From positions 1 through 5,214 of the IMG/VR virus record IMGVR_UViG_2534681705_000014: a stretch of DNA of 5,214 nucleotides. One strand, 5' to 3'. The notes under the pieces were generated by a model that made no database searches, was not told where the DNA came from, and saw only the letters and a list, made by a program, of their open reading frames with translations. The stretch is from a virus (Duplodnaviria > Heunggongvirae > Uroviricota > Caudoviricetes). How positions within the stretch are numbered: the stretch's first letter is position 1; every line of letters starts with the position of its first letter. The position numbers and the translations under genes are program-made. Below are positions 924-4,875 of this stretch, one piece after another.

Positions 924-934
924 GTGGGGTGAAT

Positions 935-3900
935 ATGGCAGTAAAGATTTCAGGTGTACTGAAAGACGGTGCAGGTAAACCGGTACAGAACTGCACAATC
1001 CAGCTGAAAGCAAAACGTAACAGCACCACGGTGGTGGTGAACACGGTGGCCTCAGAAAATCCGGATGAAGCCGGGCGTTACAGCATGGACGTTGAGTACG
1101 GTCAGTACAGCGTTATTCTGATGGTGGAAGGCTTCCCGCCATCGCATGCCGGGACCATCACCGTGTATGAAGACTCACAACCGGGTACGCTGAATGATTT
1201 TCTCGGTGCCATGACGGAGGATGATGCCCGTCCGGAGGCACTGCGCCGCTTTGAACTGATGGTGGAAGAGGTGGCGCGTAACGCGTCCGCAGTGGCACAG
1301 AACACGGCAGCCGCGAAGAAGTCAGCCAGCGATGCCGGCACATCAGCCCGTAAGGCGGCAACCCATGCGACTGATGCTGCAGGCTCAGCACGTGCAGCCA
1401 GCACATCAGCCGGGCAGGCCGCGACGTCGGCTCAGTCAGCGTCTTCCAGCGCAGGAACGGCATCAACAAAGGCTACTGAAGCATCAAAAAGTGCTGCCGC
1501 TGCAGAGTCCTCAAAAAGCGCTGCGGCTACCAGTGCCGGTGCGGCGAAAACGTCAGAAACGAATGCTTCAGCGTCACAACAATCAGCCGCCACTTCTGCA
1601 TCCACCGCGACCACGAAAGCGTCAGAAGCTGCCACCTCAGCCAGAGATGCGTCGGCTTCAAAAGAGGCGGCAAAATCATCAGAAACGAACGCATCATCAA
1701 GCGCCAGTAGTGCAGCTTCCTCGGCAACGGCGGCAGGAAATTCCGCGAAGGCGGCAAAAACGTCCGAGACGAACGCCAGGTCTTCTGAAACGGCAGCGGG
1801 ACAGAGCGCCTCGGCTGCGGCAGGCTCAAAAACAGCGGCTGCGTCGTCTGCCAGTGCCGCGTCAACAAGTGCCGGGCAGGCCTCAGCCAGTGCCACCGCT
1901 GCCGGAAAGTCGGCAGAAAGCGCCGCATCATCCGCTTCAACAGCCACAACGAAGGCTGGCGAAGCCACTGAACAGGCCACGGCAGCAGCGAGGTCAGCTT
2001 CCGCAGCGAAGACATCCGAAACGAACGCGAAAGCGTCGGAAACCAGCGCAGAATCCTCAAAAACGGCTGCCGCATCGTCAGCCAGTTCGGCGGCGTCATC
2101 GGCATCATCGGCGTCTGCTTCAAAAGATGAGGCGACCAGACAAGCGTCAGCAGCGAAGGGCAGCGCCACGACGGCATCCACGAAGGCGACAGAGGCAGCT
2201 GGCAGTGCGACGGCGGCAGCTCAGAGCAAAAGTACGGCGGAATCCGCGGCAACGCGCGCCGAGACAGCAGCAAAACGGGCAGAGGATATTGCATCCGCTG
2301 TGGCGCTTGAGGATGCGAGCACGACGAAAAAGGGGGTAGTACAGCTCAGCAGTGCGACCAACAGCACTTCCGAGTCACAGGCGGCAACGCCAAAAGCCGT
2401 TAAGGCCGCGTATGACCTGGCTAACGGGAAATACACCGCACAGGACGCTACGACAGCACAAAAAGGAATTGTCCAGCTCAGTAGTGCAACCAACAGCGCA
2501 TCTGAAACGCTTGCCGCGACACCGAAAGCAGTGAAAGCAGCTAATGATAATGCGAATGGTCGGGTACCTTCTGCCCGTAAGGTGAATGGTAAGGCGCTTT
2601 CAGCGGATATAACACTGACGCCGAAAGATATTGGTACGCTTAACTCAACAACAATGTCATTCAGCGGTGGTGCTGGTTGGTTCAAATTAGCAACGGTAAC
2701 CATGCCACAGGCGAGTTCCATCGTTTACATCGCATTGATTGGTGGCGCTGGTTACAACGTCGGTTCCCCACATCAGGCAGGCATTTCAGAACTGGTTCTA
2801 CGAGCAGGCAATGGAAACCCCAAAGGAATTACCGGGGCTTTGTGGAAGCGTACAGCCGTCGGATTAACGAATTTCGCCTGGATCAACACATCCGGCGATA
2901 CATATGATATTTACGTTGAGATTGGCAATTATGCGACGAGTGTAAATATCCATTGGGATTGTACTGCAAATGCGTCAGTTTCTGTTTATACCTCGCCAAC
3001 ATATTCAGCGAGTAAGCCTTCCAGCGTTACCTATGGTGTTGTTTATACGATGTATAGCTCACATCAGAAACCTACACCATCAGATATTGGAGCACTGCCA
3101 ACAACCGGAGGAACAGTTTCAGGTCCGTTGTCTGTTACAGGTGGATTAACTGGTTCATTGAATGGTAATGCAAGTACAGCCACGAAATTGCAGACGGCAA
3201 GATCTATCGGTGGAGTTGTTTTCGACGGTTCTGCAAATATTAACCTTCCAGGTGTAAACACTACGGGTAATCAGAACACCACTGGTAATGCTGCAACTGC
3301 TACAAAACTTCAGACTGCAAGAAAAATATCCGGTGTTCCATTTGATGGTTCTACTGATATCACTTTAACCGCCGCGCATGTGGCTGCTTTTGCCAGAAGG
3401 GCAACGGATACATATGCCGATGCGGATGGTGGCGTTCCCTGGAATGCCGAATCAGGCGCTTACAATGTCACCCGCTCTGGCGACACCTATATTCTGGTTA
3501 ACTTCTATACCGGAGTCGGAAGTTGCCGGACCCTGCAGATGAAGGCGCATTACAGAAATGGAGGTCTGTTCTACCGTTCCTCAAGAGATGGCTATGGTTT
3601 TGAGGAAGGCTGGGCAGAAGTTTATACCTCGAAAAATCTTCCACCAGAAAGCTACCCAGTCGGCGCACCAATCCCGTGGCCATCAGATACCGTTCCGTCT
3701 GGTTATGCCCTGATGCAGGGGCAGACTTTTGACAAATCTGCCTACCCGAAACTTGCAGCCGCTTATCCGTCAGGCGTGATCCCTGATATGCGTGGCTGGA
3801 CGATTAAGGGCAAGCCCGCCAGTGGTCGTGCCGTATTGTCTCAGGAACAGGACGGCATTAAATCGCACACCCACAGCGCCAGCGCATCCAGTACGGATTT

Positions 3901-4294
3901 GGGGACGAAAACCACATCGTCGTTTGATTACGGCACTAAATCCACGAATAACACTGGTGCGCATACCCATAGTGTTAGCGGTACGGCTGCTTCAGCCGGT
4001 GCACATACCCATTCGATGACATTTGTTTCAGGTGGTTCCAGTGGTGCTCCGGGAAGTGGATCACCTGATTATTCTAAATACAGTGTTAACACTTCTTCTG
4101 CAGGCGCTCATACGCACTCTGTATCGGGTACTGCTGCAAGCGCAGGTGCACACGCACATACTGTCGGTATTGGTGCTCATACGCACTCCGTTGCGATTGG
4201 TTCACATGGACATACCATCACCGTTAACGCTGCTGGTAACGCGGAAAACACCGTCAAAAACATCGCATTTAACTATATTGTGAGGCTTGCATAA
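935..4294 (+). CDS. stf: Side tail fibre protein Stf, intact long form (about 1119 aa from the ATG), with conserved N-terminal domain, Ala/Ser/Thr-rich periodic stalk, tail-fibre repeats, a distinct central module and a His-x-His-rich C-terminal tip
   Basis: One uninterrupted frame. The ORF track begins at GTG 929 (MNMAVK…) but ATG 935 ([12 protein letters not shown]…) is better placed, 5 nt after GGGG at 926-929, and matches the lambda Stf N-terminus as I recall it. N-terminal block [26 protein letters not shown]…[15 protein letters not shown]…[23 protein letters not shown], the tail-fibre repeat [11 protein letters not shown]…[10 protein letters not shown], and the C-terminal …[36 protein letters not shown]…[29 protein letters not shown] are hallmark lambda Stf / T4 gp37-type segments. 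The stop TAA (4292-4294) overlaps the tfa ATG. Confidence 0.93.
1280..2326 (+). repeat. Degenerate tandem repeat tract inside stf: about 25 copies of a 42-bp (14-residue) Ala/Ser/Thr-rich unit
   Basis: Seen in sequence: the AAK(T/S)SETNA motif recurs in-frame at nt 1541, 1667, 1751 and 2003, spacings of 126, 84 and 252 bp, all multiples of 42. The protein parses into 14-residue units (…[14 protein letters not shown] / [14 protein letters not shown] / [14 protein letters not shown] / [14 protein letters not shown]…). GC is high here, about 70% in the 60-nt line 1801-1860, and the tract throws off long shadow ORFs in other frames. Confidence 0.8.
2333..2542 (+). repeat. Two tandem copies of the conserved phage tail-fibre repeat (about 44 aa, 132-bp period) inside stf
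   Basis: Seen in sequence: [34 protein letters not shown] and [33 protein letters not shown], with matching DNA gtacagctcagcagtgcgaccaacagc (2336-) and gtccagctcagtagtgcaaccaacagc (2468-). The motif corresponds to the phage tail fibre repeat family as I recall it. Confidence 0.8.
3164..3370 (+). repeat. Two tandem copies of a 40-aa (120-bp) tail-fibre shaft repeat inside stf
   Basis: Seen in sequence: [28 protein letters not shown] and [28 protein letters not shown], starting 120 bp apart (3164 and 3284) and separated by a Gly/Asn/Thr linker [12 protein letters not shown]. Confidence 0.8.
3863..4225 (+). repeat. His-x-His repeat region of the Stf C-terminal tip (SHTHS, GAHTHS x3, GAHAHT, SHGHT)
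   Basis: Seen in sequence: repeated (S/G)AH(T/A)HS units, including two near-identical [17 protein letters not shown] blocks. Established knowledge: the homologous T4 gp37 tip coordinates metal ions through His-x-His motifs in a trimeric needle, and the lambda Stf C-terminus belongs to this family. Confidence 0.8.
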
Positions 4295-4875
4295 TGGCAT
4301 TCAGAATGAGTGAACAACCACGGACCATAAAAATTTATAATCTGCTGGCCGGAACTAATGAATTTATTGGTGAAGGTGACGCATATATTCCGCCTCATAC
4401 AGGTCTGCCAGCAAACAGTACCGATATTGCACCGCCAGATATTCCGGCAGGCTTCGTGGCTGTTTTCAACAGTGATGAGGCATCGTGGCATCTCGTTGAA
4501 GATCATCGGGGTAAAACGGTTTATGACGTGGCTTCCGGCGACGCGTTATTTATTTCTGAACTCGGTCCGTTACCGGAAAATGCCACTTGGTTATCCCCGG
4601 AAGGGGAGTTTCAGAAGTGGAACGGCACAGCCTGGGTGAAAGATGCAGAAGCAGAAAAACTATTCCGGATCCGGGAGGCGGAAGAAACAAAAAACAGCCT
4701 GATGCAGGCAGCGAATGAGCATATTGCGCCACTTCAGGATGCTGTAGATCTGGAAATCGCAACGGAGGAAGAAAACTCGTTGCTGGAAGCCTGGAAAAAG
4801 TATCGGGTGTTGCTGAACCGTGTTAATACAACAACTGCACCGGATATTGAATGGCCAGTAGCACCTATAGGGTAA
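4294..4875 (+). CDS. tfa: Tail fibre assembly protein Tfa (chaperone for Stf trimerisation, T4 gp38-like family)
   Basis: 193-aa [57 protein letters not shown]…[24 protein letters not shown], which matches lambda Tfa as I recall it. Shine-Dalgarno GAGG (4282-4285) lies inside the end of stf. The ATG (4294-4296) overlaps the stf TAA, consistent with translational coupling. Confidence 0.93.

Follow-up and report, generated by a model that had tools for sequence, protein, structure and literature searches.

The His-x-His needle of a lambdoid prophage side tail fibre: identical stem arms flank a variable tip cassette

Positions 3863–4225 of the window (the whole stretch of DNA analysed, 5,214 nucleotides) almost certainly encode the stem and tip, or "needle", of a lambdoid prophage side tail fibre (Stf), a part equivalent to domain D11 in T4 gp37. 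The Stf needle is in itself already known, as the fibre tip with iron-binding His-x-His (HxH) motifs shared by lambda and T4. Two 17-residue blocks within it are the ascending (HxH 2–3) and descending (HxH 4–5) stem arms that flank the tip; the view that they arose by a recent duplication is already largely refuted. Remodelling does occur in this family, through exchanged tip cassettes and through units gained or lost in a coupled manner; the identity of the blocks is evidence for neither.

Genomic context

In the window we recognise the lom–stf–tfa module of a lambdoid Escherichia coli prophage. As a whole, the window shows 99.7% identity to the chromosomes of several E. coli strains, and RefSeq annotates the 99.7% identical locus with gpJ, Ail/Lom, a phage tail protein, and tfaQ, adjoined by ydfJ; the window genes and this RefSeq context together follow the lambdoid gene order J–lom–stf–tfa. 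All genes and features described below lie on the plus strand. The lom gene for an Ail/Lom outer-membrane beta-barrel (259–870; PF06316, E = 3.1e-50, and RefSeq annotation of the same locus) is located upstream of stf, as in lambda.

The stf gene for the side tail fibre occupies positions 935–4294 and matches PF08400, PF03406, PF07484, and PF03335. The mechanically predicted reading frame spans 929–4294 and begins at GTG 929 (1121 aa); the true start is probably ATG 935 (MAVKISG..., 1119 aa), as seen from lambda and from RefSeq, whose CDS starts at window position 935. Residue numbers are counted throughout from GTG 929. The anchoring domain, that is, the N-terminal domain of prophage tail fibres, is found at aa 3–136 (PF08400, E = 4e-72). 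The start of tfa, the gene for the tail fibre assembly chaperone (4294–4875; PF02413, E = 6e-43), overlaps the stf stop codon (TAATG). Tfa shares 93% identity with lambda Tfa and 26% with T4 gp38 (E = 8e-18).

In nt 3770–4283, the remaining reading frames and the complementary strand contain only short embedded open reading frames of 41–86 aa, treated as by-products. The Rfam search of the same interval yielded no RNA family, and the promoter and terminator scans gave counts at the background level.

The HxH motifs and their match to T4 gp37

The interval 3863–4225 is in frame with the reading frame 929–4294, corresponds to aa 979–1099, and falls within the last 145 residues of Stf. The preliminary description of this DNA listed six His-containing repeats here; the repeats are real, and their number is seven, with HxH starting at aa 980, 1012, 1026, 1061, 1075, 1084, and 1093 (nt 3866, 3962, 4004, 4109, 4151, 4178, and 4205). 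The last 150 residues of Stf contain 14 His, all inside HxH motifs, while the remaining 971 residues contain seven His and no HxH. Shuffling of the last 150 residues (20,000 trials) produced 1.2 HxH on average and six at most, so that seven were reached in 0 trials; shuffling of the whole protein gave a mean of 0.37.

Comparison of the C-terminal 215 residues with the PDB (phmmer) reveals an end-to-end match to 2xgf_A, the tip of T4 gp37, with E = 9.9e-90 and ~70% identity (query aa 50–264 vs. chain 27–242, gaps only in the tip). All 14 His of the Stf needle are in register with those of T4 residues 811–1026, likewise 14 in number, which form seven HxH and are the only histidines of the T4 needle; these positions are invariant or nearly so in 30 diverse homologues. 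The initial assignment to the gp37/Stf family with a metal-binding needle is supported, and since all seven HxH are in register with T4, no positional mismatch with the metal-coordinating His of gp37 is seen.

In T4 gp37, the collar comprises residues 811–881 and 1010–1026; the stem, 882–931 and 960–1009; and the tip, 932–959 (PMC6957217). The Stf collar domain is found at 3662–3805 (aa 912–959; PF07484, E = 6.5e-12; aligned to 2xgf_A) and is equivalent to D10 of the T4 domain map (PMC6957217). HxH 1 (H980/H982; 3866–3874) is aligned to T4 H883/H885 and is followed by a His-free stretch of the ascending stem arm (27 residues; 3875–3955) with one SFDYGTK unit, where lambda has two. The ascending 17-residue block (aa 1010–1026; 3956–4006) contains HxH 2 (3962–3970; T4 H915/917) and the first His of HxH 3 (4004–4012; T4 H929/931). 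Then follow the hypervariable tip cassette of 30 residues (aa 1029–1058; 4013–4102), aligned to the T4 tip, and the descending 17-residue block (aa 1059–1075; 4103–4153) with HxH 4 (4109–4117; T4 H966/968) and the first His of HxH 5 (4151–4159; T4 H980/982). Two 9-residue descending units (4160–4213), also aligned to T4, bear HxH 6 (4178–4186; T4 H989/991) and HxH 7 (4205–4213; T4 H998/1000). The final 25 residues (4214–4291) form the C-terminal return into the collar and are nearly invariant from lambda to T4. The Phage_fiber family PF03335 matches aa 1007–1020 (whole-protein E = 3e-6; 27.2 bits vs. a cut-off of 20).

In the T4 needle, the HxH histidines coordinate seven iron atoms (PMC6957217; PMC11705849); the substitutions H929A and H931A are lethal, and residues of the tip bind LPS and OmpC (PMC6957217). 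Lambda Stf has the same tip and docks into OmpC (PMC12617516). From the ~70% identity to T4 gp37, we infer trimerisation, metal content, and receptor binding of the Stf studied here. By homology to 2XGF, three Stf chains would intertwine, each running out of the collar, up the needle, through a small distal tip, and back down to end in the collar. HxH from the three chains would, at each of seven levels, supply six imidazoles to one buried metal in octahedral coordination; the fibre would hold seven such ions (iron in T4), and these may rivet a thin, SDS-resistant trimeric rod. Tfa, encoded downstream, would be the folding chaperone for Stf. The AlphaFold2 single-chain model of the C-terminal domain (30-sequence alignment) has a mean pLDDT of 54.8 and a pTM of 0.18, low scores being expected of an obligate intertwined trimer folded as a single chain; this poor model shows a long two-stranded hairpin across both arms and yields no further independent structural support.

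The two 17-residue blocks

The blocks had been described as almost identical and placed at nt 3957–4008 and 4104–4155, and were read as an internal duplication indicative of ongoing remodelling. They are real and, at the peptide level, exactly identical (17/17); the coordinates were 1–2 nt off, and the reading did not hold. At the DNA level, the blocks share 34 of 51 nt and 6 of 17 third codon positions; they differ by three switches between the Ser codon families (AGY/TCN), and their longest in-register shared run is 8 nt. Random synonymous encodings of the block peptide would share 37.4 ± 2.6 nt of 51; as the observed value does not exceed this expectation, the blocks bear no DNA-level trace of duplication. 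They are also non-tandem, and their layout is common to the homologues. Tandem Repeats Finder detected no repeats in the window, and the repeat search on the window gave only 20-nt families with 70–90% identity; the HxH repeats are repeats of the protein only. We also considered selection against intragenic DNA homology, which would keep the codons of the two blocks apart, and rejected it: 34/51 is just 1.3 sd below the expectation, and other alleles span 33–40, hence there is no evidence beyond saturation.

A recent internal duplication, with the receptor-proximal part of the fibre under current remodelling, would agree with the complete peptide identity of the blocks and with the varying number of repeats in the family: the preliminary description was right that lambda Stf differs in this respect, having eight HxH vs. 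seven here, and some homologues have five, six, or nine. It would also agree with the metagenomic contig L004, in which this very allele has lost 147 nt in frame between the blocks. However, such an origin is very improbable given the synonymous divergence and the Ser codon switches described above; the blocks are not adjacent and flank the tip as in T4 and lambda; other alleles write the same peptide in different DNA, sharing 33–40 of 51 nt; and the allele is stable, with 452 complete-genome records showing ≥99% identity. Rather, the blocks represent one 14-residue Phage_fiber repeat per arm, and purifying selection for the metal-binding core would maintain the block peptide, which would not stem from a recent duplication. 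The fold alone leaves the degree of arm identity next to the tip unexplained, as it amounts to 17/17 here vs. 8/17 in T4 and 11/17 in lambda.

The tip cassette

The tip cassette between the blocks is a Gly/Ser-rich stretch of ~30 residues whose length and sequence vary among the homologues, while the flanks are constant. Given the receptor role of the T4 tip (PMC6957217), it is presumably the receptor-contacting pole, equivalent to the T4 tip subdomain 932–959 plus linker. In 120 homologous clusters (the best 120 of ~1,500 homologues), the HxH spacing is 32, 14, X, 14, 9, 9; X corresponds to the tip and is the only value that changes freely (33–56). The 14-X-14 layout is seen in T4, in lambda, and in essentially all homologues (>100). 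Around at least four tip cassettes that are unrelated to one another, the block peptide is the same.

When ten alleles are compared codon by codon, the DNA ahead of the first block and that following the second block are near-identical; between these flanks, the divergence is saturated, even where the block peptide is unchanged. Specificity would reside in the cassette, which is exchanged wholesale among alleles within almost identical flanking DNA. The cassette of the window is present in 527 of 5426 complete E. coli genomes (~10%).

Reportedly, Tétart and Krisch proposed for T4 gp37 that His-boxes act as recombination linkers. Applied to Stf, this would mean that the blocks are conserved mainly as linkers for the swap or duplication of tip cassettes, by homologous or microhomology-mediated exchange, and that their metal-binding role is secondary. 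In nine allele comparisons the divergent cassettes indeed run from the first block into the second one, and in L004 the deletion junction falls precisely within GGTGCACA, the longest stretch over which the two blocks are identical in register. Still, the DNA of the blocks has itself diverged between alleles (37/51 for the ascending blocks of the window and phage 2H10), and leaves little homology at which exchange could occur; near-identity over long stretches is seen outside the blocks, so that crossovers are more probable there; and the conservation of the peptide despite saturated synonymous change indicates selection on protein rather than on DNA. We consider this explanation rather unlikely, although less so than the recent duplication. 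Another alternative is that the His segment is a metal-bearing or siderophore-mimicking surface device (a "Ferrojan horse") whose fibre-bound iron engages iron-uptake receptors, and that it is no buried structural metal core. HxH-bearing fibres have been discussed as iron ligands (PMC11705849), but the irons of the T4 needle are structural and lie on the trimer axis, LPS and OmpC being bound via the tip (PMC6957217); lambda Stf binds OmpC (PMC12617516); and every one of the 14 Stf His is in register with the structural sites of T4, which makes this alternative extremely improbable.

Discussion

Beyond the buried metal-binding needle with an exchangeable tip, we tentatively suggest, as a possibility with the odds against it, that the needle is a two-armed modular ladder with strict pairing, in which the arms of the E. 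coli alleles have converged on one socket-like peptide. Under such a pairing rule, each extra descending unit GAHxHxVxI (9 residues) would be matched by an extra ascending unit SFDYGTKxTx (10 residues), with a first HxH gap of 32 going with two 9-residue units, one of 42 with three, and one of 52 with four; the 14-residue unit would be present on both arms or on neither. In the E. coli prophage alleles, the arms flanking the tip would have converged on an identical peptide written in unrelated codons. This shared arm peptide could be a universal protein-level socket into which any tip cassette fits, and the 8-nt identity that remains between the arms may still allow deletion of the tip, as in L004. 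The cited literature does not appear to state the pairing rule explicitly.

If general, the pairing would provide a design rule for fibre length and tip swaps, and it suggests how the needle length might be changed without breaking the fold. The receptor cassette is delimited to nt 4013–4102, or ~3950–4153 with both arms, with flanks nearly identical across alleles, and is a natural exchange unit for Stf chimeras in phage-derived delivery particles. As a discovery it is minor, being a textbook feature in an allele carried by ~10% of the complete E. coli genomes.

Comparison with known fibres

The tip of T4 gp37 (2XGF) has the same collar and the same seven HxH in register, with the spacing 32, 14, X, 14, 9, 9; the C-terminal strand is almost identical (16 residues), and a dedicated chaperone gene directly follows in both cases. 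On the other hand, the tip cassette is unrelated to that of T4, and in Stf it is two residues shorter (the gap between HxH 3 and 4 is 35 here vs. 37 in T4). Elsewhere the protein is a lambdoid Stf and not a T4 distal half-fibre, and the chaperone is a lambda-type Tfa, with the identity to gp38 being as low as given above. The blocks do not differ from the curated description of PF03335, each being one such 14-residue repeat (G-x-H-x-H-S-x-S-G-x-x-x-x-x).

Ur-lambda, with Stf of 774 aa and Tfa, has the same lom–stf–tfa order. The ~350 N-terminal residues of lambda Stf (1–352) are 80% identical to those of the protein studied here, and the C-terminal domain is 68% identical. Among the eight HxH of lambda Stf, the additional one belongs to an extra 9-residue descending unit, GAHQHPVVI, paired with an extra 10-residue ascending unit, SFDYGTKTTG. 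The lambda tip is also longer, with 48 residues between HxH 3 and 4 vs. 35 here. Conversely, the shaft of the present Stf is ~345 residues longer than that of lambda, due to extra Ala/Ser-rich repeats and a second Phage_fiber_2 repeat, and a central part of ~360 residues is absent from lambda Stf.

The tail fibre of Escherichia phage 2H10 (Glaedevirus) is 91% identical over the C-terminal 264 residues and shows the same layout of seven HxH and the same block peptide. It differs only in the cassette from block to block, blocks included, where it has another tip and, in the blocks, synonymous changes. E. coli prophage Stf alleles of the type described here are annotated simply as "phage tail protein".

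Gene content of the locus

The window contains, all on the + strand, the end of a J-like gene; lom (259–870, PF06316); stf (929–4294), a 1121-codon ORF with the Pfam domains phage_tail_N, Phage_fiber_2, Collar, and Phage_fiber; and a tail-fibre assembly gene, tfa (4294–4875, Caudo_TAP), whose ATG overlaps the stf stop codon. Several E. coli chromosomes carry the window at 99.7% identity (megablast), and the RefSeq gene order at the locus is gpJ, Ail/Lom, "phage tail protein", and tfaQ, with a truncated ydfJ adjoining; hence, the window belongs to a lambdoid prophage located at ydfJ. The stf gene is a common prophage gene, already annotated, and its His needle is a known feature.

The mechanical ORF of the fibre gene starts with GTG at 929 (MNMAVKISG), compared to an ATG at window 935 (MAVKISG, 1119 aa) in RefSeq, for a locus 99.7% identical, and in lambda Stf; residue numbers here are counted from 929, and RefSeq numbers are lower by 2. 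Tfa shares 93% identity with its lambda counterpart and is distant kin of T4 gp38. A strong terminator-like hairpin (897–918, + strand; eight pairs, seven of them G–C, followed by a T-run) is seen between lom and stf, 11 nt 5′ of the stf ORF. Rfam family RF02111 (IS009) matches at full length at 4637–4835 (+ strand), wholly inside tfa (212 bits, gathering score 117, E = 1e-52); what this "RNA family" describes may be nothing but the conserved tfa coding sequence.

Histidine motifs and homology to T4 gp37

The region 3863–4225 is in frame with the stf ORF and encodes aa 979–1099. The Stf C-terminus shows seven His-x-His (HxH) motifs, not the six His-containing repeats counted in the preliminary description; they start at aa 980, 1012, 1026, 1061, 1075, 1084, and 1093. 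All 14 histidines of the last 150 residues sit in these motifs, and the remaining 971 residues contain seven scattered His and no HxH. Shuffling of the last 150 residues (20,000 trials) yields 1.2 HxH on average and never seven.

The last 215 residues of Stf align with the T4 gp37 receptor-binding tip as solved in crystal structure 2XGF (chain A; E = 9.9e-90, ~70% identity), with gaps in the tip only. In a four-way alignment of the window Stf, T4 gp37, Ur-lambda Stf, and that of phage 2H10, the seven motifs align with T4 H883/885, 915/917, 929/931, 966/968, 980/982, 989/991, and 998/1000, besides which T4 residues 811–1026 contain no histidines. The His residues are thus clearly conserved in position between Stf and T4 gp37 (14/14 matching T4 HxH). 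The 2XGF match and the in-register HxH support the earlier reading of a metal-binding needle of the gp37/Stf family.

In T4 gp37, as described by Islam et al. 2019 (PMC6957217), the needle holds seven iron atoms coordinated by these HxH motifs, and the domain map comprises collar D10 (811–881 and 1010–1026), stem (882–931 and 960–1009), and tip (932–959). The same study reports lethality for the substitutions H929A and H931A, and binding of LPS and OmpC by residues of the tip. For Ur-lambda Stf, a tip of this type and docking into OmpC are stated (PMC12617516). Transferred to Stf, the T4 map would place the collar at about 908–978 and 1105–1121, the stem at 979–1028 and ~1055–1104, and the tip at ~1029–1054. 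By homology to the T4 structure, three Stf chains would intertwine, with Tfa aiding their folding; each HxH level would set six imidazoles around one axial Fe2+, giving seven ions per fibre; and the Gly/Ser-rich tip loop (30 residues) would touch the receptor. An AlphaFold2 model of one chain of the C-terminal domain is of low confidence (pLDDT 54.8) and uninformative.

The two blocks and the tip cassette

Two 17-residue blocks, described earlier as almost identical and placed at nt 3957–4008 and 4104–4155, are real, but exactly identical (17/17) and shifted by 1–2 nt: aa 1010–1026 (nt 3956–4006) and aa 1059–1075 (nt 4103–4153). Each comprises one copy of the 14-residue Pfam repeat PF03335 and the next G-A-H. 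On the ascending stem arm, the first block spans HxH 2 and extends to the leading His of HxH 3; its counterpart on the descending arm spans HxH 4 and the leading His of HxH 5. The pair is not a tandem duplication, the tip being located between the two. At the DNA level, the blocks have 34/51 nt in common (6/17 at third positions, with three Ser AGY/TCN switches and a longest in-register run of 8 nt), compared to 37.4 ± 2.6 nt of 51 expected for two independent synonymous encodings with the codon usage of the gene; therefore, no nucleotide trace of duplication is left in them. The suggestion that internal duplication points to ongoing remodelling is, given this identity and arrangement, unsupported. 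Of the earlier readings, the metal needle and the family assignment find support; the count of six and a recent duplication do not.

The same peptide in Escherichia phage 2H10 (Glaedevirus) is differently encoded, with 36–40/51 nt common with the window blocks, and alleles with arms 16–17/17 identical in protein have only 33–40/51 nt in common (80 IMG/VR loci). This pattern is one of long-term purifying selection on the block peptide, not of recent remodelling.

In a single observation (locus L004, 988–1902 of a Logan contig from run ERR3061932, protein P0084), the window's allele has an in-frame 147-nt deletion relative to window 3956–4153, which takes out the tip and two HxH; its two sides meet at the 8-nt GGTGCACA, the longest run over which both blocks are identical in register. 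The gene there is a fusion with a TMP_2-like N-terminal part, and the prophage is probably a decayed one.

Among the best 120 of ~1,500 homologues (protein clusters), the 103 with a complete C-terminus were scored for HxH: seven are found in 89, eight in 6, nine in 2, and five or six in 6. The spacing is (32,14,X,14,9,9), where X, the tip, is the sole freely varying gap (33–56 residues). Many unrelated tip cassettes are flanked by the block peptide or near variants, the exact 17/17 pair being seen around at least four. At the codon level, the window and nine other alleles are almost identical in DNA 5′ up to the module and from about its 3′ edge to the stop; between these flanks divergence is saturated, synonymous changes within the blocks included, which points to an exchangeable module at about nt 3950–4153 with long conserved flanks on either side. 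Mosaic evolution of these adhesins has been described (PMC3157838) and agrees with such a module. Of 5426 complete E. coli genomes, 527 carry the window's cassette at ≥80% coverage; identity reaches ≥99% in 452 records. Many database proteins with the Stf C-terminal tip are short fusions (P0007, P0080, P0098, P0103, and similar matches) whose N-terminal parts come from phage proteins of other kinds, unrelated to Stf (terminase, DUF1441, C40 peptidase, ParB-like). Prophage remnants may thus often keep the stf 3′ end along with tfa.

Arm pairing and comparison with lambda Stf

Each extra descending 9-residue unit (GAHxHxVxI) is paired 1:1 with an extra ascending 10-residue unit (SFDYGTKxTx): a first HxH gap of 32 occurs with two 9-residue units (91 clusters), 42 with three (8 clusters), and 52 with four (2 clusters). 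T4-like phages obey the same rule, with a gap of 42 or 41 and three units at loci L085 and L087, and 32 and two at L089; the 14-residue unit is missing from both arms together in proteins P0112 and P0120 and locus L086. Further examples are window 3875–3955 with 4160–4213, proteins P0104, P0111, P0102, and P0116, and locus L001. Arm pairing thus seems to be general in gp37/Stf needles. We infer that stem length would change only through coupled changes on both arms, compatible with an up-and-down hairpin.

The Stf shaft (window ~1300–3650, aa ~125–905) is ~345 residues longer than that of lambda Stf, with additional Ala/Ser-rich (KTSETNA-type) repeats and a second Phage_fiber_2 repeat (aa 464–504 and ~505–547); its central ~360 residues have no lambda counterpart. 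Residues 859–913 are similar to the Mu tail fibre S protein (8ju3_A, E = 6e-13).

In the needle, the difference in repeat number from lambda Stf, as suggested earlier, is borne out: lambda Stf has eight HxH, compared to seven here. Its descending arm has one more 9-residue unit (IGAHQHPVV), its ascending arm one more 10-residue unit (SFDYGTKTTG), and its tip is longer.
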